Notes under the pieces: generated by a model
The model's database searches: none
Told to the model about the DNA's origin: nothing
Seen by the model: the letters and a program-made list of their open reading frames with translations, nothing else
Assembly (NCBI GenBank): GCA_001773695.1
Contig: MEXN01000004.1
Coordinates: 1 to 62,423 of the forward strand
Reading direction: 5' to 3'
Length of the DNA stretch: 62,423 nucleotides
Source: Candidatus Amesbacteria bacterium RIFCSPLOWO2_01_FULL_48_25
GTDB lineage: Bacteria > Patescibacteriota > Microgenomatia > CAZETR01 > Amesbacteraceae
Translations under genes and position numbers: made by a program
Shown: positions 226 through 35,598 of the stretch, piece by piece
Numbering within the stretch: position 1 is the first letter of the stretch
Layout of the letters: each line of letters opens with the position of its first letter

Positions 226-1329
226 TCATTCGACTGGGCTAAATGTTTCAAAAAAAGCCTTAATTGCAGCCTCATTATTCAGGCACTCCTCTTTAGGAAA
301 CCTCCAATAATATATGTCTGAATAAGAAAGTATAAAAACTTTATTATTGAAGGGAAGGTAAATTGTCACAATTCTATATTTTCTAGGCACACTGCTTTCA
401 TAAACGGCATTGTTATCTGCGGTAACTCTTTTACCTATAATTCCGTTTATGGACACACTTTCCTGTACCTTACCTTGATAATTGTAAGTTGGATCATTAA
501 CACCTAGCCACTGTTCGAGTGGCAAACCTGAAGGATTATCTCTTTTTTCTACATTAAAAGAATCCAGACAAAACTCATCAAGACCGTGTGCCCTATTGAA
601 TGTTAGTTTTCTATCATTATCGCTTCGGTTAAGTAACGGTGCTTTAAATAATTTGTCATCGTATCGAATAGACCACCCATCTGTTTTATTTTCAAATAAC
701 TTCCAACTTTTTTGCTCAGTCGAAATTTTGGTAACCGGTGTGGGTAAAAATTGGTTAATTGTTTGTCCAATTGAAGACCATAAAATATAGATCGCTATAA
801 ACAGCAAAATGTATCCACCAAAGAAAGCTATTTGTTTTTTCATTGGCCACGTACTTTTTACTCTAACAACCTGACTATTGGCTGCTAAATCATGAAGCCC
901 TCTCTTTTGTTTCGAAAAGATTATTACAAGGCTGTTTACGAAGTAGAATAGGCCCCCGAAAATAGGAATTATTAAAATACCCACTTTTGTAAGCTCTCTT
1001 ACAATTCCGCGCCAGTACGATATTTTTTCATCCGTATGATATTTAACAACTTTAAGACCATAGGCATCTTTACCAATTGTTGTTCCCTTTTTAGAAGTGA
1101 AGTAAACGTAATATATAATATATGAAGCTAGAACAATTATTGTATAAACCGGATTTGTTTCTATACTTCCTTTTGAAATACGTATTCCAGTTATTAGATA
1201 CCAAATAGAAACTATTACTACGGCTGGTATACCAAAAATCATTCCATCTATTATGCTTGCCCAGAATCTTGCCCATGCGCCACCAGGTTTTATCTCAAAG
1301 TTGTTGTTGGGTTTTGACTCCAAGGGCAT
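226..1329 (-). CDS. RDD-family membrane protein with extracytoplasmic C-terminal domain
   Basis: RFWASIIDG, TIGKDAYGLKVV and KRGLHDLAANSQVV are RDD motifs, followed by a further TM helix and a soluble domain. Confidence 0.8.
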   Translation of the reverse strand: MPLESKPNNNFEIKPGGAWARFWASIIDGMIFGIPAVVIVSIWYLITGIRISKGSIETNPVYTIIVLASYIIYYVYFTSKKGTTIGKDAYGLKVVKYHTDEKISYWRGIVRELTKVGILIIPIFGGLFYFVNSLVIIFSKQKRGLHDLAANSQVVRVKSTWPMKKQIAFFGGYILLFIAIYILWSSIGQTINQFLPTPVTKISTEQKSWKLFENKTDGWSIRYDDKLFKAPLLNRSDNDRKLTFNRAHGLDEFCLDSFNVEKRDNPSGLPLEQWLGVNDPTYNYQGKVQESVSINGIIGKRVTADNNAVYESSVPRKYRIVTIYLPFNNKVFILSYSDIYYWRFPKEECLNNEAAIKAFFETFSPVE

Positions 1330-1548: not shown

Positions 1549-1626
1549 CGGAGGCGCGGCGGGTGGGGGCGCCGCGCCGGAGCTAATCAAATGAAGTTCG
1601 ACATTTTTTGTAAACGGCCAGCCAGT
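1549..1626 (-). repeat. 78-bp perfect inverted repeat, right copy
   Basis: Exact reverse complement of 85-162. Confidence 0.95.
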
Positions 1627-1876
1627 CGCCTCTTATTATAACTTCCTGCTGCTTACGCAGGACGGAAAACACCGGATTCTCGGCTATTTTCCAGACTTTC
1701 TTATCCTTAACGTAAATCCGTTCAAAGAACAGCCTAAGATAATGTTTTTTGAGAAAATCCGGGGCTTCAGTGTACGTCTGATAAGTATTAGTGGTTAGGG
1801 ACAAAACTTCGTCAATCAAACGATAGTCCAGTTTAGCCTTGGCTTCCACCTCACTTTGTGACTCCTGAAAAACCTC
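1583..1876 (-). pseudogene. C-terminal fragment of a probable large serine recombinase
   Basis: ...LKKHYLRLFFERIYVKDKKV...W..RT* resembles the post-coiled-coil tail of large serine recombinases; no catalytic N-terminus is present. Left boundary from the ORF track, right boundary approximate. Confidence 0.5.
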
Positions 1877-1920
1877 CCTGAATAATATTAAGAAATTGCT
1901 AAAGAAGTAGATTGATGCAT

Positions 1921-2025
1921 TTTGACTTCTTCCCATCTTTCCCTGATTAACTAATTCTGAAAAGTGTCCTCATAAGCTTTGAACAAAAATCTTTTAATAA
2001 TATGCTCTCATTCACTAATTATAAT
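1921..2025. repeat. Diverged direct repeat A (LIRERWEE-encoding segment plus TATAAT)
   Basis: About 44/60 nt identical to 8295-8354 by hand alignment; similarity continues to a shared TATAAT (2020-2025 vs 8376-8381). Confidence 0.8.
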
Positions 2026-2113: not shown

Positions 2114-4417
2114 ATGGCAAAGGAAGTTGACACAACACTGGTTCATCCCGCAGTAGCTTCACTTTCACCCAATAACCCTGCCGGGATCGAAAGTCTGCTA
2201 AGGGTCGTGAACGGCGAGGTAGCTTTCGTCGATTTCAATGAAGGGCTGCTCCTAGATTGGATGCTTTCGAGTGCTTCACTCGGGGATTTTGTAAAAAGTC
2301 ACAGTTCAGACAAGACTTTTGCGGCTAGATTGGAAAAATTAGGTATGACACATAAAAGAGTGGAAACTGTTGTTGAAGGGGCTGACGAGGCCAGGGAAGC
2401 TTTCGCAAGATTAGAAACTTATGGAGATTTCAGAAAGTTTGTGGAGTGTAAGAGAGTGCTCGAGGATGCTGCCAAGATCGTGAGTGCGCCATTTATAACA
2501 GATGAAGAAGCGGAGTATTTAAAAGTTCATAGGAATACATTTGGTTACTACAATTCCCAGTTTCATGATTCCAGAGGTTCATTAGTAGAATTGTCACAAT
2601 CTGCCAGGCTATATAAGACTTTTTTAGAAGATCAAGCCATACCTCAAATACTGCAGAGTAAGCCAAAAATACTTGGTATTTCGGTAACTCACCCAGATCA
2701 ATATGTATTTGCATTTCAATTGGCCCATGGAGTCAGAAAAGCTAATCCTGAAATTGTGACATTGTGTGGGGGTGGAACAGTTTCGAGAAGGATGGATACA
2801 TGGTCAAAAGATGATGATATAAACAGGGCTATTTTCAGAGATTCCAGAGCAGAAGCTAAAGGACTAATAGATGGAATGGTTATAAGTGAAGGGGAATTAG
2901 CCATGGCGCAGCTAACAGCGAAAATTGTCAGCGATCCAAGTATCGATATAAATGATTTGTTTGATGATGTTTACGGCGCGGTATATAAGAAAGACGGCAA
3001 GATCACATTTAACAGTCTTCCCAGAGCTTTTTATCCGGAGGCATTATGGAGAAGAAGAGATGTTTATAAACACTTAAAGAGAGGTTTAATGCCCGAAGAA
3101 AGAAAAATGCATTCGCTTGTAGACGGAAGAGTTTGTACTTACGAATGTTCCACCGGTGGGTGTGAATTTTGTGCGATTAGTAAGGGTTACCTGGAGTTAT
3201 CCCAACAGGCAGTCCGAAGACTGAGAATTCCACAGGCTCCAGTATTATCAGACTCGACTCAGATTGAACAAGGTTTAAGTTATCCTCCGGACGCCATTGA
3301 CGGAAAAAGAGGGATTAAGGTTATTGCTCAACGAAAATTGGGTGCCGAAAGAATGGCTCAGGAGATACAAGAAGGACTTCAGAATGGATTTTCAGTAGTA
3401 GATATAACTGATGAACAGTTTACTGTCGATCAGGCTTTAGAGCTTACAAAAGCCCTGGCCAGTCGGGGCATAAATACATCTAATCAGGATGTCGTTTACT
3501 CTTGCTATATGAGAATTGATGACGCTGGGGATACTACAAATTACAGACAAAAATATGGAAAGGACTTGTCAGATCTTTTGGTTGATCCGGAAGCTGCCAA
3601 GCAGCTTGCAGCAGGCGGCTTAAGATTCGCCCAGTTTGGTCTTGAAACCACATATCCTCCAAAAATGCAGTCTATGGTAAAGGGAACATCTGAATCAAAA
3701 GTGAAAAAATTTGGGAGTGTTCTGAAGAATTTAGCTGAAAATGGAATCATGTCACATATTTTCGTAATTGTCGGCTATCCGTTAAGGCAAGATTATTTTC
3801 AGGATGGTAAAAAATTCTCTTTCGAGAAAAAGGTTTTAGGCCGCGACATAGATGCCGATGACCTGGAAATTTTTGAGGCTATTTATAACTTAAAGTTTCT
3901 CCATGACCACAGTCGATATATTTATACATTTAAACAAGCACCATACGAATTAGCGTATGGATCTCCAATGGCAGCAAAACCTGAACAATATGGTTTGGCT
4001 GCTGATTGGGGACAATTTGAGAAGACTGACCTAGCTTGTGGTATTCCGTTCAGTTACACAGAAAAGATCGGACCGTCACAACCAGTATTGAACGACTTGA
4101 TTGAGTTATATGGTTTTTGGAAGCGAAAGGAAATGCCATTTCAACCAGTTGTCCAGGAGTTTCAATACTCGCAGAGAATAATACAGGAGCTGGGAGCAGA
4201 GAAAATTGCCCAAATTGCTCACAACTTATCAAAAAATGAGTCTGGAAACGAAAGCCCCACACGGGAAGCAGAAATTCTTATCCGCTTGTGGGGTAAACTG
4301 ACGGATCATGGAAAAAGCAACAACGGGGTTAGATTAATGTTTCCGTCTGGATTTAAGTCTTACGACGACTTGTATTCATTGGCTGAGAAATTGGAAGAAC
4401 TGAGGGAAAAAACTTAA
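2114..4417 (+). CDS. Cobalamin-binding (class B-like) radical SAM protein
   Basis: B12-binding-like segment KILGISVTHPDQ...GGGTVS; CSTGGCEFC (CX4CX2C) cluster motif; YMR, FGLET and VIVGYP match radical SAM barrel strands. Confidence 0.8.
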   Translation: MAKEVDTTLVHPAVASLSPNNPAGIESLLRVVNGEVAFVDFNEGLLLDWMLSSASLGDFVKSHSSDKTFAARLEKLGMTHKRVETVVEGADEAREAFARLETYGDFRKFVECKRVLEDAAKIVSAPFITDEEAEYLKVHRNTFGYYNSQFHDSRGSLVELSQSARLYKTFLEDQAIPQILQSKPKILGISVTHPDQYVFAFQLAHGVRKANPEIVTLCGGGTVSRRMDTWSKDDDINRAIFRDSRAEAKGLIDGMVISEGELAMAQLTAKIVSDPSIDINDLFDDVYGAVYKKDGKITFNSLPRAFYPEALWRRRDVYKHLKRGLMPEERKMHSLVDGRVCTYECSTGGCEFCAISKGYLELSQQAVRRLRIPQAPVLSDSTQIEQGLSYPPDAIDGKRGIKVIAQRKLGAERMAQEIQEGLQNGFSVVDITDEQFTVDQALELTKALASRGINTSNQDVVYSCYMRIDDAGDTTNYRQKYGKDLSDLLVDPEAAKQLAAGGLRFAQFGLETTYPPKMQSMVKGTSESKVKKFGSVLKNLAENGIMSHIFVIVGYPLRQDYFQDGKKFSFEKKVLGRDIDADDLEIFEAIYNLKFLHDHSRYIYTFKQAPYELAYGSPMAAKPEQYGLAADWGQFEKTDLACGIPFSYTEKIGPSQPVLNDLIELYGFWKRKEMPFQPVVQEFQYSQRIIQELGAEKIAQIAHNLSKNESGNESPTREAEILIRLWGKLTDHGKSNNGVRLMFPSGFKSYDDLYSLAEKLEELREKT

Positions 4418-5310
4418 CTTTGCTCTGCCTTTTCTTCTTTTTCATGATCGTAGTAGGTAGGGTATTTTTCTGACATGGGGAATTTATATTGAGTAGGATC
4501 TTTGACCCCTGCTTCTTTATAACCTCTTCGCCTATCCCAACAAGTCGGACAATCGCCGCATTCGAGATCAAACTTCTTTACGCAAGTTCTGGCTTTATGA
4601 ATAGGGATATCATGATCATAAGCCCACTTAATAAATACATCCTTATCATAATAATTTCCAAAAGCTGTTTCTATGGGAATAGAAATAAATTGCCAAGAGT
4701 AGTCATTTAAAATTTGACACATAAGTAAATTCATAAGTCTTGTCCATGTTTGGGAGCAATGATATGAGCTGTCTGAACTTAGATGCGAAGCAAATATTGT
4801 GTTTATTTTTACATCTTTAGCCATCAGCGAATAGCCATATTCCATCCCCGTGAGGAAAATTATCGGATTTCTGGCTGGATATGAAATGTTATGACGAAGA
4901 AGAATTGAATCCACTTTCTTTTTTGCTTCTCTTAACAAATCTTTATATTCTGTTCCCGGGGTTGGAACATTTATCTCTAAATAATCGTTGTAGAGTTTGG
5001 GATATCTCTTTTTGTAGAATTCGTCGAAGAAATCTGCTGATGCTTTTTCGTATTTATAATTTGATTGACCCCTGCTAATAAAGAATGGGTAAACATGTAA
5101 ACCAAACTCTTCCATAAGTATACCGATATTTGTAACAGAATCCTGACCGCCGGAAAGACAGGCAACTACGCTACTGCCCTTTTCCGGCATTTTTACAATG
5201 TATCCACGTTTTTTTTCAAAATAGATATCCAGTACCGAAAGCAGTTCCATGTCTTCGTTGACTTTAGTTTTGATATCAATTATGCCAATATTATTCAATA
5301 TTTTGGTCAT
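4414..5310 (-). CDS. QueC-like PP-loop ATP pyrophosphatase
   Basis: SGGQDS PP-loop, GQ motif, YPARN, C-terminal Zn motif C-x8-CGDCPTC, RRRGYKEAGVKDPTQY tail. Confidence 0.85.
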   Translation of the reverse strand: MTKILNNIGIIDIKTKVNEDMELLSVLDIYFEKKRGYIVKMPEKGSSVVACLSGGQDSVTNIGILMEEFGLHVYPFFISRGQSNYKYEKASADFFDEFYKKRYPKLYNDYLEINVPTPGTEYKDLLREAKKKVDSILLRHNISYPARNPIIFLTGMEYGYSLMAKDVKINTIFASHLSSDSSYHCSQTWTRLMNLLMCQILNDYSWQFISIPIETAFGNYYDKDVFIKWAYDHDIPIHKARTCVKKFDLECGDCPTCWDRRRGYKEAGVKDPTQYKFPMSEKYPTYYDHEKEEKAEQS

Positions 5311-6034
5311 AGTGTTTATACATCGCGTAAACTTTCTTAGCTTCTTTCATAGTTTCCTGATAAATATGCGCATCGGTGACAAAGCCATCGAGTGGCCCGG
5401 TCCAAACATGGACTTTAAGCTTCTTTTCCAATCTTTTACAGACCTCTTTGGATAGCAAAGATATTGCAGCCATATTGCCCCCAGCTTTCTGGTAGGCGTC
5501 AATGGATCTGGCATTAAAGATGGTATTCAGATGAAATCCTTTGTCTTCATCAATTTTCAGCAACCTGAATTGGATTGTAGTAATACAAGGAAGATAATCA
5601 TCTCTCGGTCGATTTAAGGTTCTTTCATAATCTTCTTTTCTCACAAAACTCATTATTGCCTTCTTAGATTCGGGGATTTCAGCCAATCTTTCCACTACGA
5701 AATCCATCATCTTCCAGTTTTTGATTCTAGCAAAGTAGCTTTGACTTCCAGGACTGAATGACGGAACAATATCAAAATCGTGCATTATTTCCTTGTCAAA
5801 AGTTAAGCTTATTATTTCTTCGATATTTTTTTTATTACCGTATTTTTCCATTAAAGGATCTGGGAATACTTGAGTTAGCGACTTTATACGAATATTCTGC
5901 AAACTCAAACGCTTCCTTCCCTCATCGTTGGTTAATTGTCCATTTTTTAAAACTACACCCACAAGATTCATCCAGGCGCTGCCAATTGTTTCCCCGTATA
6001 GATTGTATCCAAAAGGTTCCAAATTTACCCACAT
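5291..6034 (-). CDS. Thymidylate synthase-fold protein (short, archaeal-like ThyA/hydroxymethylase type)
   Basis: LPC catalytic Cys, IQF, RSID, Asn at the dUMP-specificity position (GGN), AHIY; divergent N-terminus. Confidence 0.8.
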   Translation of the reverse strand: MWVNLEPFGYNLYGETIGSAWMNLVGVVLKNGQLTNDEGRKRLSLQNIRIKSLTQVFPDPLMEKYGNKKNIEEIISLTFDKEIMHDFDIVPSFSPGSQSYFARIKNWKMMDFVVERLAEIPESKKAIMSFVRKEDYERTLNRPRDDYLPCITTIQFRLLKIDEDKGFHLNTIFNARSIDAYQKAGGNMAAISLLSKEVCKRLEKKLKVHVWTGPLDGFVTDAHIYQETMKEAKKVYAMYKHYDQNIE

Positions 6035-6113
6035 AATGGCTAATTCTAGCTCTTTTTTTGGAAAACTGCCAGTTAGTGGTAAAATTTGGCGGAGTTAACG
6101 TATATCCGGTAGT

Positions 6114-6704
6114 ATGTCAGTTGAAAGAACACCTGTTACTGTGTTTTTAGAAGGATCTTCCCGCTCCGGTAAAACTACTCTATTAAAAGCAATAGAAGCT
6201 CCGGATACAGCCATAATCTATAAGAATTGGCCATCTGATTTGAAAGATCCACCCATAGAATTCTTTTTGGAGCGGGACGAAGATAAGCTTCACAGAGCTA
6301 AGGCTGCACCGCAGCAGTTAAAACTAGTGGACAGAGGCTATTTATCAACATTAACATTCTATTCGGTTCTGGAAGAACAAGTGGGAATTTCAGCCCAACC
6401 AGTTTACAGGTGGGTTGTTAATGAAATGGGGCGCAAGTTATACCATCCGGATCATTACATTTTTGTTGATGTGCCCCCCGAAGTGACAAGGAAAAAATAC
6501 AAAAGCCATGGGGGTTTAGTATACGAAAATAATATGTGGATCAAATTTCCCGAACGAATAAGTTTTTGGTACAACAGACTTCTGGCAGCTTATGAACCTG
6601 CAACTTCAGTTTACCGGATAGACGGCAGCAGGGATTTAAATTTAGTAATGGAAGAATTTAACGACCTACTCAGCACAATCAGAAACGGCTCACCTGAAAC
6701 ATAA
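6114..6704 (+). CDS. Thymidylate-kinase-like nucleoside monophosphate kinase
   Basis: P-loop EGSSRSGKTT, DRGYLS motif, PDHYIFVDVPPE. Confidence 0.8.
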   Translation: MSVERTPVTVFLEGSSRSGKTTLLKAIEAPDTAIIYKNWPSDLKDPPIEFFLERDEDKLHRAKAAPQQLKLVDRGYLSTLTFYSVLEEQVGISAQPVYRWVVNEMGRKLYHPDHYIFVDVPPEVTRKKYKSHGGLVYENNMWIKFPERISFWYNRLLAAYEPATSVYRIDGSRDLNLVMEEFNDLLSTIRNGSPET

Positions 6705-6708
6705 AGTT

Positions 6709-7581
6709 TTACCTGAAATATTCCTTAGCTTTACGCAGAACTTCAAGGTGGTCATCAATACTACTCTTATTGCCTCCAACTGATCCGACTGAAAAATGAC
6801 TGACTTCAGAATGTGCAAGCCAATCATCACCTTCTCTTTTCCAGTCATTTTCTCCCGATTCCCATCTGATGTTAACCTTTCCCATAACAGGCAATGTTTG
6901 CGGGTCCCTGGCTTGGTCTTCTAAACATTGTTTCAACAGAGGAAGATACTGATAATTAAATTCGGCGGCCTTTCCTCTTGGAATCCACCCATCGGCTATC
7001 CTCACTGTTCTCGCTATAACTTTATTATTAGTTCCCCCCATCCAAATAGGGATTGGTTGTTGAATAGGTCGAGGGTTAATTCCTACAGATTTAAATTGCT
7101 CTTGCTGATCTGAGAAATTAACAGAATCTTGTGTCCATAGTTGTCGGAGCAGCTCAACTTGTCGCTCAATTCTTCTACCTCTTTGAGAAAAGATACTTCC
7201 CATTCCCAAAGCGTCAAACTCTTCTTTTAACCAGCCGACCCCTACCCCTAGGTTTAGCCTGCCATCACTCAGAATATCTACATCTGCTGCCTGCCGGGCT
7301 GTAAGGGCTGTTTGCCTCTCGGGAAGTACAAGTACACCAGTGAAAAGCTCAATCTTACCTGTAACGGCAGCTATTGCTGCCAGTAAGGTCAGCGGGTCTG
7401 TGTATTTTTCTTCTAAAGAGTATTTCAGCTTCTCACCTGTTTGATTCTGACTTGGTAAAACAACATGATCACAGGCAACTACATAATCAAATCCCATTTT
7501 TTCGGTTTCCTTTGCTAACTCAAGAATTTCTCTTCCGCCAATGAGTTCGCGCGGCAATATCACTCCTATTTTTCTTTCCAT
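6709..7581 (-). CDS. LLM-class (flavin/F420-dependent) oxidoreductase
   Basis: GFDYVVACDH, DPLTLLAAIAAVT, LSDGRLNLGVGVGW, PIPIWMGG, ADGW. Confidence 0.88.
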   Translation of the reverse strand: MERKIGVILPRELIGGREILELAKETEKMGFDYVVACDHVVLPSQNQTGEKLKYSLEEKYTDPLTLLAAIAAVTGKIELFTGVLVLPERQTALTARQAADVDILSDGRLNLGVGVGWLKEEFDALGMGSIFSQRGRRIERQVELLRQLWTQDSVNFSDQQEQFKSVGINPRPIQQPIPIWMGGTNNKVIARTVRIADGWIPRGKAAEFNYQYLPLLKQCLEDQARDPQTLPVMGKVNIRWESGENDWKREGDDWLAHSEVSHFSVGSVGGNKSSIDDHLEVLRKAKEYFR

Positions 7582-7658
7582 AGCCAGATTTTATCACTAT
7601 GTCCTGTAGTTTGCTAAATTTGGCAATACCATCCATAGAATCGTTGTATAATTAAAAC

Positions 7659-8258
7659 ATGACCGAAGAAGAATCCTGGGGGGTTTTGACAAAGAAACAA
7701 TTCGAAGACTTTTTAGCTTTGTTTACCAAACGTTTTGGTAAACCTGTTCACTCAAAACGGCTTTCTTTTTCTTTTTGGGATCATTCCAGAAACGAAGTTG
7801 ACACTAGGATAAGAGTCACTGACGGAAAACCGGAGATTATGCAGAAAGTTGGAGGAATCGGCGACCAAAAGGTCAGAGTAAGAACGGAAAGAAGAATAAC
7901 TTTAACTCCCAATCCGGACGATTTATTTAATACATACAAAATTCTCAGGGTACTAATTCCAGGTGGCGACTCATGCTATATATATCAACACGATAATTAT
8001 ATTTTTAAACAACCAGATTTTGAAATTAAACTGACTCATCAGCTGGGCAAAACCGACAAATATAATTTCGAGGTAGAAGCCGACACCACAAAGAAAGAAT
8101 TAAACCAGCTTTTAAGGGATCTGGGATTGTTTGAACTGGTGACTCTTACCAACGCTGAGTTTTGGGACAAATGGAATGAAGAGCTAAATCTTAGAGATGT
8201 TGAGTTAACTGAAGAGAAAGTGAAAGATCTTATAACAGGATATTTAGCTCACGAGTAG
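7659..8258 (+). CDS. CYTH-like (triphosphate tunnel) protein
   Basis: N-terminal ExE (ExExK degenerate), RIRV...MQK, FEVEA; acidic C-terminal helix. Confidence 0.62.
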   Translation: MTEEESWGVLTKKQFEDFLALFTKRFGKPVHSKRLSFSFWDHSRNEVDTRIRVTDGKPEIMQKVGGIGDQKVRVRTERRITLTPNPDDLFNTYKILRVLIPGGDSCYIYQHDNYIFKQPDFEIKLTHQLGKTDKYNFEVEADTTKKELNQLLRDLGLFELVTLTNAEFWDKWNEELNLRDVELTEEKVKDLITGYLAHE

Positions 8259-8294
8259 GTCAGGATTTTGGGCTAGGCGGCTATATTGCAGGGT

Positions 8295-8381
8295 TTTAAT
8301 TTCCTCCCATCGCTCCCTGATTAATTGAACCTGCACAATATCTTCAAAAGCCTTAACAATCTTCTCTAATGCACTTATAAT
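8295..8381. repeat. Diverged direct repeat B (LIRERWEE-encoding segment plus TATAAT upstream of tRNA-Lys)
   Basis: Homologous to 1921-2025; minus strand reads KAFEDIVQVQLIRERWEEIK. Confidence 0.8.
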
Positions 8382-8406
8382 AACGTCAGAACCACGCAGC
8401 TAGATT

Positions 8407-8478
8407 GGGCTCGTAGCTTAGAGGTAAAGCAGCTCCCTCTTAAGGAGACGACCGAGAGTTCGAATCTCTCCGAGCCCA
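8407..8478 (+). tRNA. tRNA-Lys(CTT)
   Basis: Cloverleaf: GGGCTCG/CGAGCCC acceptor stem, loop CTCTTAA, T-loop TTCGAAT. Confidence 0.93.
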
Positions 8479-8480
8479 CA

Positions 8481-15032: not shown

Positions 15033-15667
15033 CTCTTTGATCTTACAAGAAACCATTCTTCTTTGGGGAGTTTGGACTGGATGGATAAGATCCAGTCACA
15101 GTCGGATGCTTGGGAAACGTGGGCTTGCATGGCCGAAACTTTAATATCCCAAACTGAAGAGATCTCGACAATTTCATCAACTTCTTCTTTCGGCTTGCCG
15201 GGTGGCATGTAGACGAAGTAATCGGAGATTTGTGATCTTTCTGCGTCTTTTAAGCAAAAATACATTATTTTTTGGACATAGTTTAGTTTGGGAAAAAGGA
15301 AATTGACGGCGGAAGTGACGGCAATGTGATCTAAATGGCCGGAGACGCCATTGGGGTCGAATGTGATAATTATTTCAGGCTCGATTTTGTCTAACCTAGT
15401 CTTGAGATTGTCTGCCAGTTTATGATACAAGGCATTTGATAATGCTCCGTCGATAAACTTTAGAAAATGGACTTGTTTGACGCCTAAAATTTTGGCCGAG
15501 GCGAGCAATTCTTTATCTCTGACGTTTTTAAGTCCGTTGTTATGGACGTCGCCGTCCGTGCAGCAGATGATGTGAATTTCGTGGTCGCGGGCTAGTTTGG
15601 CTAGGGTCCCCCCCGGTCCAAAGGCCTCATCGTCGGGATGGGCAAAAACGCAAGCTATGGTTGACAT
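15029..15667 (-). CDS. PIG-L family deacetylase
   Basis: AHPDDE, TDGD, GHLDH, AHVSQ. Confidence 0.9.
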   Translation of the reverse strand: MSTIACVFAHPDDEAFGPGGTLAKLARDHEIHIICCTDGDVHNNGLKNVRDKELLASAKILGVKQVHFLKFIDGALSNALYHKLADNLKTRLDKIEPEIIITFDPNGVSGHLDHIAVTSAVNFLFPKLNYVQKIMYFCLKDAERSQISDYFVYMPPGKPKEEVDEIVEISSVWDIKVSAMQAHVSQASDCDWILSIQSKLPKEEWFLVRSKR

Positions 15668-35485: not shown

Positions 35486-35526
35486 CCCCGATCTTGTTTA
35501 GGGAATTATATAGAATTTTTTTGTTG

Positions 35527-35598
35527 TGGGCGAAGCAGGATTCGAACCTGCAACATGATGTGTATAAGACATCTGCTCTACCGTTGAGCTATTCGCCC
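35527..35598 (-). tRNA. tRNA-Ile(TAT)
   Basis: GGGCGAA/TTCGCCC acceptor stem; anticodon arm GATGT-CTTATAC-ACATC; T-loop TTCGAAT. Confidence 0.92.

Follow-up and report, generated by a model that had tools for sequence, protein, structure and literature searches.

The window analyzed here, which is the whole of a 62,423-nucleotide stretch of DNA from Candidatus Amesbacteria bacterium RIFCSPLOWO2_01_FULL_48_25 (assembly GCA_001773695.1, contig MEXN01000004.1, positions 1 to 62,423 of the forward strand), carries at positions 2114 to 8258 a cassette of six genes that includes a thymidylate synthase-like (TS-like) gene and a gene for a QueC-like PP-loop enzyme. The host is an uncultured, ultra-small member of the candidate phyla radiation (CPR)/Patescibacteria, with the Genome Taxonomy Database lineage Bacteria; Patescibacteriota; Microgenomatia; CAZETR01; Amesbacteraceae. 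We find that TS-like and QueC-like genes, together with genes for CYTH proteins and kinases, form a recurrent module that is present in about 90 loci. The conserved core of this module is a TS-like gene followed by a QueC-like gene, nearly always accompanied by a gene of the nucleoside triphosphate (NTP) pyrophosphatase type and present with or without a kinase gene. The cassette in the window may be an expanded version of this mobile nucleotide-pool module, which would provide a T4-like route, operating at the monophosphate level, to a non-canonical pyrimidine deoxynucleoside triphosphate (dNTP), an interpretation that we consider only slightly short of evenly probable. It builds on the observed gene identities, conserved catalytic residues, recurrent linkage, interchange of enzymes within functional slots, and mobility of the cassette. 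The six genes are as follows.

2114 to 4417, plus strand: putative radical S-adenosylmethionine (SAM) enzyme of the B12-binding-domain type (767 amino acids), an accessory in the survey described below.
4414 to 5310, minus strand: QueC-like PP-loop ATP pyrophosphatase (298 amino acids), a core gene.
5291 to 6034, minus strand: TS-like enzyme with a thymidylate synthase fold (247 amino acids), a core gene.
6114 to 6704, plus strand: P-loop deoxynucleoside monophosphate (dNMP) kinase of the Tmk/dNK type (196 amino acids).
6709 to 7581, minus strand: luciferase-like (LLM) flavin- or F420-dependent oxidoreductase (290 amino acids), an accessory in the survey.
7659 to 8258, plus strand: CYTH-like triphosphate tunnel metalloenzyme (TTM) p199, termed CYTH2 (199 amino acids), in the NTP-pyrophosphatase/triphosphatase slot.

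The initial annotation of this region had reported all six open reading frames (ORFs), the 4-bp and 20-bp overlaps between them, and their low G+C content, and each of these features is real. Its six family assignments also hold, through Pfam and NCBIfam matches and, for the radical SAM and CYTH2 proteins, through AlphaFold 2 (AF2) models compared by Foldseek. Its description of the genes as convergent or divergent pairs fits the radical SAM and QueC-like genes, which converge such that their stop codons share a palindromic TTAA in the 4-bp overlap, as read from the sequence. It does not fit the overlapping TS-like and QueC-like genes, which are co-directional, with the TS-like gene upstream and the QueC-like ATG at position 5310 located inside its last codons to produce the 20-bp overlap. 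This overlap hints that the two proteins may act as a complex. The genes are also packed closely elsewhere, with one gap of 4 bp and others of about 78 bp. The G+C fraction of positions 2114 to 8258 is 0.397, compared with a mean of 0.468 (standard deviation 0.015, minimum 0.44) for 192 segments of the same size taken from the rest of the window. A scan of the region for promoters and terminators returned counts that were not above those in shuffled sequence, and the sequencing runs that hold the locus yielded no transcription evidence, as all are DNA runs (assembled, Illumina-type).

The recurrence of these genes was examined in a survey of 101 loci (designated by L numbers) drawn from one genome scan, one metagenome scan, and context look-ups, with all ORFs clustered. 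TS-like genes are present in 93 of the 101 loci and QueC-like genes in 89, followed by genes for a PF01928-positive CYTH protein with an EIEVK motif (CYTH1; 64 loci), an adenylate kinase-like P-loop kinase (25 loci), a radical SAM enzyme (16 loci), a kinase of the type found in the window (10 loci), an LLM oxidoreductase (10 loci, all of the cassette type), CYTH2 (10 loci), a true Tmk encoded inside the operon (8 loci), and a DNPH1/Rcl-like dNMP N-glycosidase (8 loci). In the informative subset, defined as the 31 nonredundant loci with at least 1.5 kb on each side, the TS-like and QueC-like genes are adjacent and overlapping at 28 loci. A pyrophosphatase-type gene is likewise found at 28, whereas a kinase is present at 16, a radical SAM gene at five, and an LLM gene at three. 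These frequencies are inconsistent with the single, indivisible six-gene pathway that was first envisaged. The radical SAM and LLM genes are instead optional accessories to the core. Co-occurrence in other genomes, which the initial annotation had proposed to check by a gene-neighborhood survey, was borne out both for the module and for the ordered six-gene cassette, which recurs in at least four contexts.

Different enzyme families occupy the same positions in the module. The pyrophosphatase slot is filled by CYTH1 (PF01928), CYTH2, or Ham1 (PF01725, E = 7.5e-31; L086 and L108), and at least three families (adenylate kinase-like, Tmk, and the window type) fill the kinase slot. The DNPH1/Rcl-like glycosidase has Protein Data Bank (PDB) entry 2klh as its best PDB relative (E = 4.6e-5) and also matches an “hmdUMP N-hydrolase.” Six loci add a protein with helix-turn-helix and NUDIX domains that could equally be a regulator, and L072 and L092 encode a SLOG/LOG-like protein. 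The radical SAM gene also accompanies simpler modules that lack an LLM gene, in the arrangements kinase>TS>QueC>CYTH1<radical SAM (L035 to L038 and L096) and TS>QueC<radical SAM (L033 and L034). Across all 16 loci and three architectures, it is always positioned tail-to-tail with the QueC-like gene. Named genome matches are all metagenome-assembled genomes of Patescibacteria/CPR, the exceptions being a short contig from a bin assigned to Gammaproteobacteria and two bins labeled only “bacterium.” One copy of the module, with the order TS>QueC>CYTH, resides on a phage contig from IMG/VR (L027), where it sits between a group of exonuclease, NinB, and YopX genes and a methyltransferase-like gene. 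This contig further encodes an M23 lysin and GroEL. The initial annotation knew of no named pathway with this gene set, and we found none in the literature. Likewise, no description of a TS-QueC-CYTH module was found, including by way of the methanogen TS family or of CPR thymidylate metabolism.

The TS-like protein matches PF00303 in a Pfam search (E = 5e-8; 32.9 bits versus a gathering cutoff of 24.3). Its best subfamily is the methanogen-type TIGR03283 (MJ0757 family), whose members it resembles in aligning over nearly the full length, in being similarly short, and in having no long C-terminal arm. However, its score against this model (E = 4e-13; 49.4 bits) falls well short of the cutoff of 174.55, and the biochemistry of the subfamily is itself poorly characterized. 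Against the PRK01827 ThyA models the score is 30.7 bits versus a cutoff of 327, and all NCBIfam ThyA cutoffs are missed. Orthology with ThyA was rejected because every equivalog cutoff was missed. As judged by these comparisons, the protein is a member of the TS superfamily that lies far from ThyA, in agreement with the earlier view that it is not an ordinary housekeeping enzyme. The residues P149-C150, R176-S177-x-D179, N187, and D221-x-H223-x-Y225 are invariant among 30 family members, and the catalytic residues align with those of the Enterococcus faecalis TS (PDB 3uwl). Through this alignment, N187 maps to the position of Escherichia coli N177 and an invariant Tyr147 maps to that of L143, a mapping based on a weak match of the family profile to PDB sequences (E just 0.27). 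According to rules quoted in PMC13326640, Asn at the N177 position denotes a uracil nucleotide, and hydroxymethylases and hydroxylases have an acidic residue at the L143 position.

A second TS-family domain (PF00303, E = 1.7e-18) was observed at L070:10610-11917 on the minus strand, where it is fused to an adenylate kinase-like kinase. In this domain Ser replaces the catalytic Cys, and Asp occupies the N177 position. Decayed in-frame remnants of such a domain are present upstream of the kinase at L043, L046, L060, L098, and L100.

The QueC-like protein matches PF06508 (E = 4e-11) and phrog_1550 (E = 9e-22), and scores far below the equivalog cutoffs for QueC (TIGR00364; 27.9 bits versus 150.3) and QatC (NF041925; 21.2 bits versus 280). 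Canonical QueC enzymes carry the motifs SGGxDS, C(x)8CxxCxxC, YxQxHxxE, VPxRN, and YPDC, with Y35, R99, and Y131 being essential in the E. coli protein (PMC13329287). The PP-loop of the window protein reads SGGQDS, with S53, G54, G55, and D57 invariant in alignments. The zinc motif is retained as Cx7CxxCxxC (C243, C251, C254, and C257), compared with the canonical Cx8 spacing, and the PxRN motif is kept as Y-P145-A-R147-N. The other two motifs differ throughout the family: YxQxHxxE is altered to R80-G-Q82...E88, with Tyr changed to Arg and His lost, and YPDC is replaced by S-Y-H184-C. The protein also has extensions of about 45 amino acids at its N terminus and about 30 at its C terminus. Identity with canonical QueC was rejected because the equivalog cutoff is missed, the substrate motifs are replaced, and queD and queE are never among the neighbors. 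QatC/Cap9 identity was rejected because the NF041925 cutoff is missed and the loci carry no QatA, QatB, QatD, or CBASS neighbors. A PADLOC match to QatC (E = 0.008) is restricted to the C-terminal zinc region.

With QueC, QatC, Cap9, ToyM, and the DpdC-linked enzymes, the QueC-like protein shares the PF06508 fold, SGGxDS, PxRN, and the C-terminal Cys4 zinc motif, and ATP-dependent adenylation is to be expected of it. Unlike these relatives, it is not encoded near queD, queE, or a gene for TGT (tRNA-guanine transglycosylase), nor near the QatABD genes. Moreover, its group is not among the ten clusters of a 2026 survey of PF06508, in which no cluster is mentioned as being linked to TS, CYTH, or Patescibacteria (PMC13329287). 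Of those clusters, 7, 8, and 10 comprise archaeal sequences only.

The kinase of the window, whose P-loop reads GSSRSGKT, belongs to a family of 28 clusters. It matches PF01712 (E = 1.8e-6; 28.3 bits versus a cutoff of 27) and phrog_761 (E = 3e-12), and falls below the cutoffs of the Tmk models PF02223 (E = 1.8e-4; 21.7 bits versus 27) and TIGR00041 (E = 4e-7; 29.9 bits versus 83.25). Its relatives at L114:7420-9562 and L115:7254-9375 (61 to 67% identical) and at L116:4883-7002 (43%) lie in a Ham1-kinase-GT2 arrangement, which adjoins greA in L115 and L116 and whose kinase may be the housekeeping Tmk of those Parcubacteria. Since such close relatives reside in ordinary GreA-Ham1-kinase-GT2 contexts, the cassette kinase looks like a recruited enzyme of the Tmk type, which revises the initial interpretation.

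The CYTH2 protein p199 gave no matches to Pfam or NCBIfam models, PF01928 included. However, an AF2 model built with a 48-sequence alignment (from a family of 80 representatives) has a pLDDT of 94.7 and a pTM of 0.90. Its best Foldseek matches are the TTMs 7ns9, 7nsf, 6yp4, and 5a67, each with a probability of 1.00 and an E value of about 2e-8. Thus, in its modeled fold, p199 is a CYTH-like protein of the triphosphate tunnel type. A sequence link between p199 and the CYTH1 family received only 16% probability from hhalign, and the relationship was settled by structure. Six residues (R34, K63, E122, K124, E138, and E140) do not vary in the family, E3 and E5 vary very little, and the Lys of the ExExK motif is absent. 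In character, the invariant residues appear to resemble the charged residues that line the tunnels of TTMs. The activity of CYTH2 is predicted from its fold and from its substitution for other enzymes within the slot. Distant CYTH2 members also occur in loci that lack TS-like and QueC-like genes (L110:5257-6600 and L112:6001-8258); one directly follows a NUDIX gene, and another is near a gene for a 3-methyladenine DNA glycosylase.

The 767-amino acid protein belongs to a rare family, of which a protein search found 23 homologs, and its sequence matches are weak (PF02310, 15.6 bits, and PF04055, 15.5 bits, both with E near 0.02 and below cutoff; TIGR03975, E = 4e-7). The AF2 model is of moderate quality (pLDDT 73), with the Fe-S loop at low confidence. 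The best Foldseek matches are MgmA (9ccb, E = 5.6e-7) and AprD4 (6fd2), with TM-scores of 0.28 to 0.50. It is reasonable to view the protein as a putative B12-domain radical SAM enzyme. In its model, an N-terminal Rossmann or B12-like domain appears to precede a radical SAM barrel, as in the class B enzymes MgmA, PhpK/Fom3-type proteins, OxsB, and AprD4, the last of which has a B12 domain and does not use B12. It differs from these enzymes in its very low sequence similarity, in the additional sequence at its N terminus (about 130 amino acids) and C terminus (about 150), and in its invariant cysteines. These (C341, C350, and C353) form a Cx8Cx2C motif rather than CX3CX2C, and the Cys that would give the CX3C spacing is not conserved in the alignment. 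PDB sequence searches with the TS-like, QueC-like, and radical SAM proteins returned nothing usable. Two distant radical SAM homologs were noted at L022:1620-13108 and L021:6582-12328. One of the two resides in a polyketide synthase/nonribosomal peptide synthetase (PKS/NRPS) cluster with a biopterin-dependent hydroxylase, and the other beside 2′,5′-RNA-ligase-like, aminotransferase, HIT, and methyltransferase genes near a serine recombinase.

The LLM protein is a solid member of its family, matching PF00296 (E = 5e-44) and exceeding the cutoff of TIGR03619, the Rv2161c family (226.4 bits versus 166.9), and it is probably F420- or FMN-dependent. The initial annotation had placed an LLM oxidation after the TS step and before the action of the QueC-like enzyme on a carboxylate. 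This order is not tenable as a general mechanism, since most TS-QueC loci lack an LLM gene or any other oxidase. The LLM enzyme was rejected as a general supplier of the carboxylate on the same grounds.

The cassette is part of a wider low-GC island and shows signs of mobility. Features of the window that bear on this point are listed below; the parent contig (L015) was used for sequence beyond the window edge.

226 to 1329, minus strand: RDD-family membrane protein (PF06271, E = 1.5e-24).
1583 to 1936, minus strand: 117-amino acid ORF, part of the low-GC island.
1893 to 2040 (core 1908 to 1980), no strand: left flanking direct repeat of the cassette, overlapping the start and upstream region of the 117-amino acid gene.
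8262 to 8405 (core 8282 to 8354), no strand: right flanking direct repeat, with a truncated start (MGGN*) of the 117-amino acid gene as read from aligned sequences.
8407 to 8479, plus strand: tRNA-Lys(CTT), identified by ARAGORN and Rfam, at the border of the low-GC island.

The low-GC stretch spans about 9.6 kb (L015 7800 to 17400). It contains a large serine recombinase, the RDD protein, the 117-amino acid ORF, and the six genes, and ends at the tRNA-Lys gene. The recombinase (525 amino acids, with Resolvase, Recombinase, and Zn_ribbon_recom domains) is encoded directly to the left of window position 1 (L015:16171-17748). The 73-nt cores of the direct repeats that bracket the cassette are 71% identical, and their pairwise alignment extends to about 110 to 140 nt at roughly 70% identity. 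These are the sole clear repeats, as a search for tRNA-borne att repeats that would delimit the whole island found none. In L025, a 32-nt repeat with 88% identity and a different sequence (L025:8326-8357 and 15587-15618) brackets seven genes. The occurrence of repeats around exactly the cassette in two contexts suggests insertion at the level of the cassette.

The same gene order and orientation (radical SAM+, QueC-, TS-, kinase+, LLM-, CYTH2+) is found in four or more unrelated flanks, counting that of the window. Proteins are 63 to 77% identical across four contexts, and the radical SAM homologs within six-gene cassettes are 61 to 77% identical. Besides that in the window, one cassette lies between tyrS and recG (L023), another adjoins genes for an HNH-helicase and an exonuclease and has an additional PfkB kinase gene inserted (L025), and a third adjoins a Thoeris system, a ParB-methylase, and an S24 peptidase (L019). 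Given the direct repeats and the recurrence in different flanks, the cassette behaves as a discrete insertable unit. The Thoeris-like set (ThsB-TIR, ThsA-Macro, and ThsB-TIR) at L019:1642-3556 is a few kilobases from the cassette, in the company of a NUDIX gene, the ParB-N6/N4 methylase gene, and the S24 peptidase gene.

This arrangement bears on whether the adjacency of the genes reflects chance or a shared island history, in which case the radical SAM, LLM, and CYTH2 genes would be functionally unlinked to the TS-QueC pair. The absence of these three gene types from most TS-QueC loci, and the presence of distant radical SAM, CYTH2, and kinase homologs in unrelated contexts, could be taken in this way. 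However, all radical SAM homologs with at least 57% identity whose context was examined adjoin a QueC-like gene, in three architectures and in different flanks. Furthermore, the six-gene order is maintained between proteins that are 63 to 77% identical, the genes are tightly packed, and the direct repeats enclose exactly the cassette. We consider an explanation based on chance to be very improbable.

We propose the following series of reactions, for which the substrate, the order of steps, the product, and DNA as its destination are inferred. A CYTH-type enzyme, or Ham1 at other loci, would first cleave a pyrimidine dNTP to the monophosphate, which would both clear the canonical competitor and feed the pathway. 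The TS-fold enzyme, through Cys150, would then attack C6 of a uracil nucleotide and add a one-carbon group at C5. Next, the translationally coupled QueC-like enzyme would adenylate the TS product with ATP, releasing AMP and PPi, and thereby amidate or aminate it. The target might be a carboxyl group derived from C5, in keeping with classic QueC chemistry, although this would require an oxidation or carboxylation that is absent from the minimal module. Alternatively, it might be the C4 lactam oxygen, which would undergo O-adenylation as QueC does on its amide intermediate. O-adenylation of nucleobases is carried out by ThiI, TilS, and GMP synthetase. Candidate products of the TS-QueC pair are 5-carboxamido- or 5-cyano-deoxyuridine, or a C4-aminated 5-substituted base. 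The Tmk-type kinase would rephosphorylate the product, which would then pass into the dNTP pool and DNA. In the version present in the window, the B12-domain radical SAM and LLM enzymes may tailor the product further by C-methylation or rearrangement and by a redox step, respectively. The presence of the DNPH1/Rcl-like glycosidase with the pyrophosphatase, TS-like, and kinase genes points to chemistry at the level of deoxynucleoside monophosphates.

The pre-replicative pathway of phage T4 comprises the gp56 dCTPase, the gp42 dCMP hydroxymethylase, and the gp1 dNMP kinase, and related pathways yield hmdUMP in SPO1, m5dCMP in XP12, and 5-hydroxy-dCMP in RB69 and DLP3. As judged by gene family, the same combination of a dNTP pyrophosphatase, a TS homolog that acts on a dNMP, and a dNMP kinase appears to be co-encoded recurrently in the module. 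In addition, one copy of the module is embedded among the replication genes of a phage. It has been proposed that unmodified NTPs are broken down in phages by triphosphatases of the CYTH and MazG types, and dNTP clearing by CYTH proteins has been suggested for jumbo phages (PMC7824862). The module departs from the T4-type pathways in several respects. Its pyrophosphatase is CYTH or Ham1 rather than a dUTPase- or MazG-type enzyme, its TS has Asn and Tyr at the N177 and L143 positions rather than the Asp and acidic residue of dCMP-modifying enzymes (PMC13326640), its obligatory QueC-like partner has no counterpart there, and its copies are mostly in bacterial chromosomes rather than in phages.

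Several observations weigh against a T4-like route to a non-canonical base. No DNA-level enzyme (glycosylase, transferase, or polymerase) is encoded within the module, and 11 of the 31 informative loci have no linked kinase. The kinase in the window is closely related to kinases in contexts that resemble housekeeping ones, and the role of CYTH in the pathway is a predicted activity on a predicted substrate. Chemistry of the QueC type needs a carboxylate or an amide, for which the minimal module has no obvious source. By published rules, bulky Tyr at the L143 position together with Asn at the N177 position agrees with the protein being a plain dUMP methylase (PMC13326640). Two scans of the 2.9 million contigs of IMG/VR found the module in one contig only. 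Cultured phages yielded none with the module, their best TS match (in Agrobacterium phages) being 25% identical and their best QueC match (in Dp-1) being 24% identical. We also know of no precedent for pool-level base replacement in the chromosome of a cellular organism.

Some of these points would be accommodated if no non-canonical base were made, and the module instead provided an alternative supply of ordinary dTTP to folate-poor, scavenging CPR cells and their phage. In such a scheme, CYTH or Ham1 would serve as a dUTPase that converts dUTP to dUMP, the archaeal-type short TS would produce dTMP, and the Tmk-type kinase would produce dTDP, while the QueC-like enzyme and, where present, the LLM and radical SAM enzymes would support an unusual cycle of one-carbon or reductant cofactors, or else a side reaction, for instance the conversion of dUMP to dCMP. 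Every catalytic residue of TS is kept, Asn at the N177 position points to uracil, the bulkiness of the residue at the L143 position favors a methyl product by the published rule (PMC13326640), and the best family match, with its full-length alignment, is to a thymidylate synthase model (TIGR03283). True Tmk genes lie within the operon at eight loci, and the kinase in the window is 61 to 67% identical to kinases of the housekeeping-like Ham1-kinase contexts. Phage TS genes are also common and boost dTMP supply (PMC7824862).

However, dTMP synthesis has no known role for an obligatorily coupled PP-loop enzyme or a B12-domain radical SAM enzyme. The module is moreover patchy (432 clusters, at a threshold of 90% identity, among the 5.8 billion sequences of a database), nonsyntenic, low in G+C, and mobile, which is atypical of an essential housekeeping pathway. 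The second TS-family domain at one locus also counts against this scheme, and CPR bacteria generally have canonical ThyA, which serves as a phylogenetic marker, and in some cases FolA (PMC10221324, PMC11974145). Motifs of canonical ThyA or ThyX gave nothing informative in the window and the fetched loci, and because the window represents about 10% of the genome, their absence carries little weight. On balance, we regard an ordinary dTTP supply as possible but doubtful.

TS-fold enzymes that modify C5 of pyrimidine monophosphates are also found in the pathways for mildiomycin (MilA/MilB), bacimethrin (BcmA-D), and polyoxin (PolB). As in these pathways, some module loci also encode an N-glycosidase for nucleoside monophosphates (NDT/DNPH1 or LOG type), and a PfkB kinase is added in L025. 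In contrast to these systems, the residue at the N177 position of the module TS is Asn (uracil) rather than Asp (cytosine), the neighboring genes are mostly for kinases and NTP pyrophosphatases rather than for sugar or peptide tailoring, and the hosts are CPR bacteria with reduced genomes.

A related proposal is that the product is a diffusible or signaling nucleotide or nucleoside for conflict with phages or hosts, rather than a building block of DNA. It could be an antimetabolite, a viperin-like antiviral analogue, or, on the model of the MilA/MilB and Bcm pathways, a free modified base that a glycosidase has released. This proposal would be in keeping with the placement of the genes in mobile low-GC islands, with the neighbors of the L019 copy (Thoeris, ParB-methylase, and S24 peptidase), with the DNPH1-like or SLOG/LOG-like N-glycosidase genes of some loci, which could free a base, and with the residence of distant radical SAM homologs in a PKS/NRPS cluster and in another cluster of small-molecule character. 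Members of the QueC family have also been repurposed in the Qat and CBASS defense systems (PMC13329287). However, a PADLOC search for known defense systems, a check that the initial annotation had suggested, gave a generic QueC match and weak noise only. Most loci have no defense-island context, and they share no recurrent gene for a sensor, an effector, an exporter, or self-resistance. In addition, the phage copy is located amid replication and recombination genes, and the kinases and NTP pyrophosphatases suit pool metabolism more than secretion. A small-molecule role seems unlikely.

Returning to a route through the nucleotide pool, we put forward the more specific proposal, which is tentative and in our estimation appreciably less than evenly probable, that the TS-like and QueC-like enzymes of CPR bacteria, and of one or more of their phages, make a new pyrimidine deoxynucleotide that enters DNA by way of the pool, and that the radical SAM and LLM enzymes elaborate the version encoded in the window. 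Nearly all known pyrimidine hypermodifications begin with a TS-fold enzyme, and enzymes of the QueC family have recently been shown to be versatile ATP-dependent ligases. What is new here is an obligatory QueC-like partner in a presumed modification of pyrimidines at the monophosphate level, as we found no earlier description of a fixed, coupled TS-QueC pair. If the proposal is correct, the system would be the first in which pyrimidine dNMPs are modified with the help of a PP-loop enzyme, and also the first mobile system for pool-level base replacement that is borne on the chromosomes of cellular organisms. A new base made by the pair would widen natural DNA-modification chemistry, provide new enzymes for modified nucleotides, and give CPR bacteria a trait that possibly affects their interactions with phages and hosts. 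If the module is instead a folate-sparing route to dTTP, the view of nucleotide metabolism in symbionts with reduced genomes would need revision. Either way, the module is compact and clearly delimited and lends itself to direct testing in E. coli.

Two further features of the window lie outside the cassette. The RDD-family protein encoded at positions 226 to 1329 has a weak PADLOC match (E = 2e-4) to the C-terminal part of PD-T4-6, which probably reflects the shared RDD domain alone. Most bacteria decode AUA with a lysidine-modified CAU tRNA rather than with a UAU tRNA, and the window encodes a tRNA-Ile with the anticodon TAT (UAU) at positions 35526 to 35598 on the minus strand.

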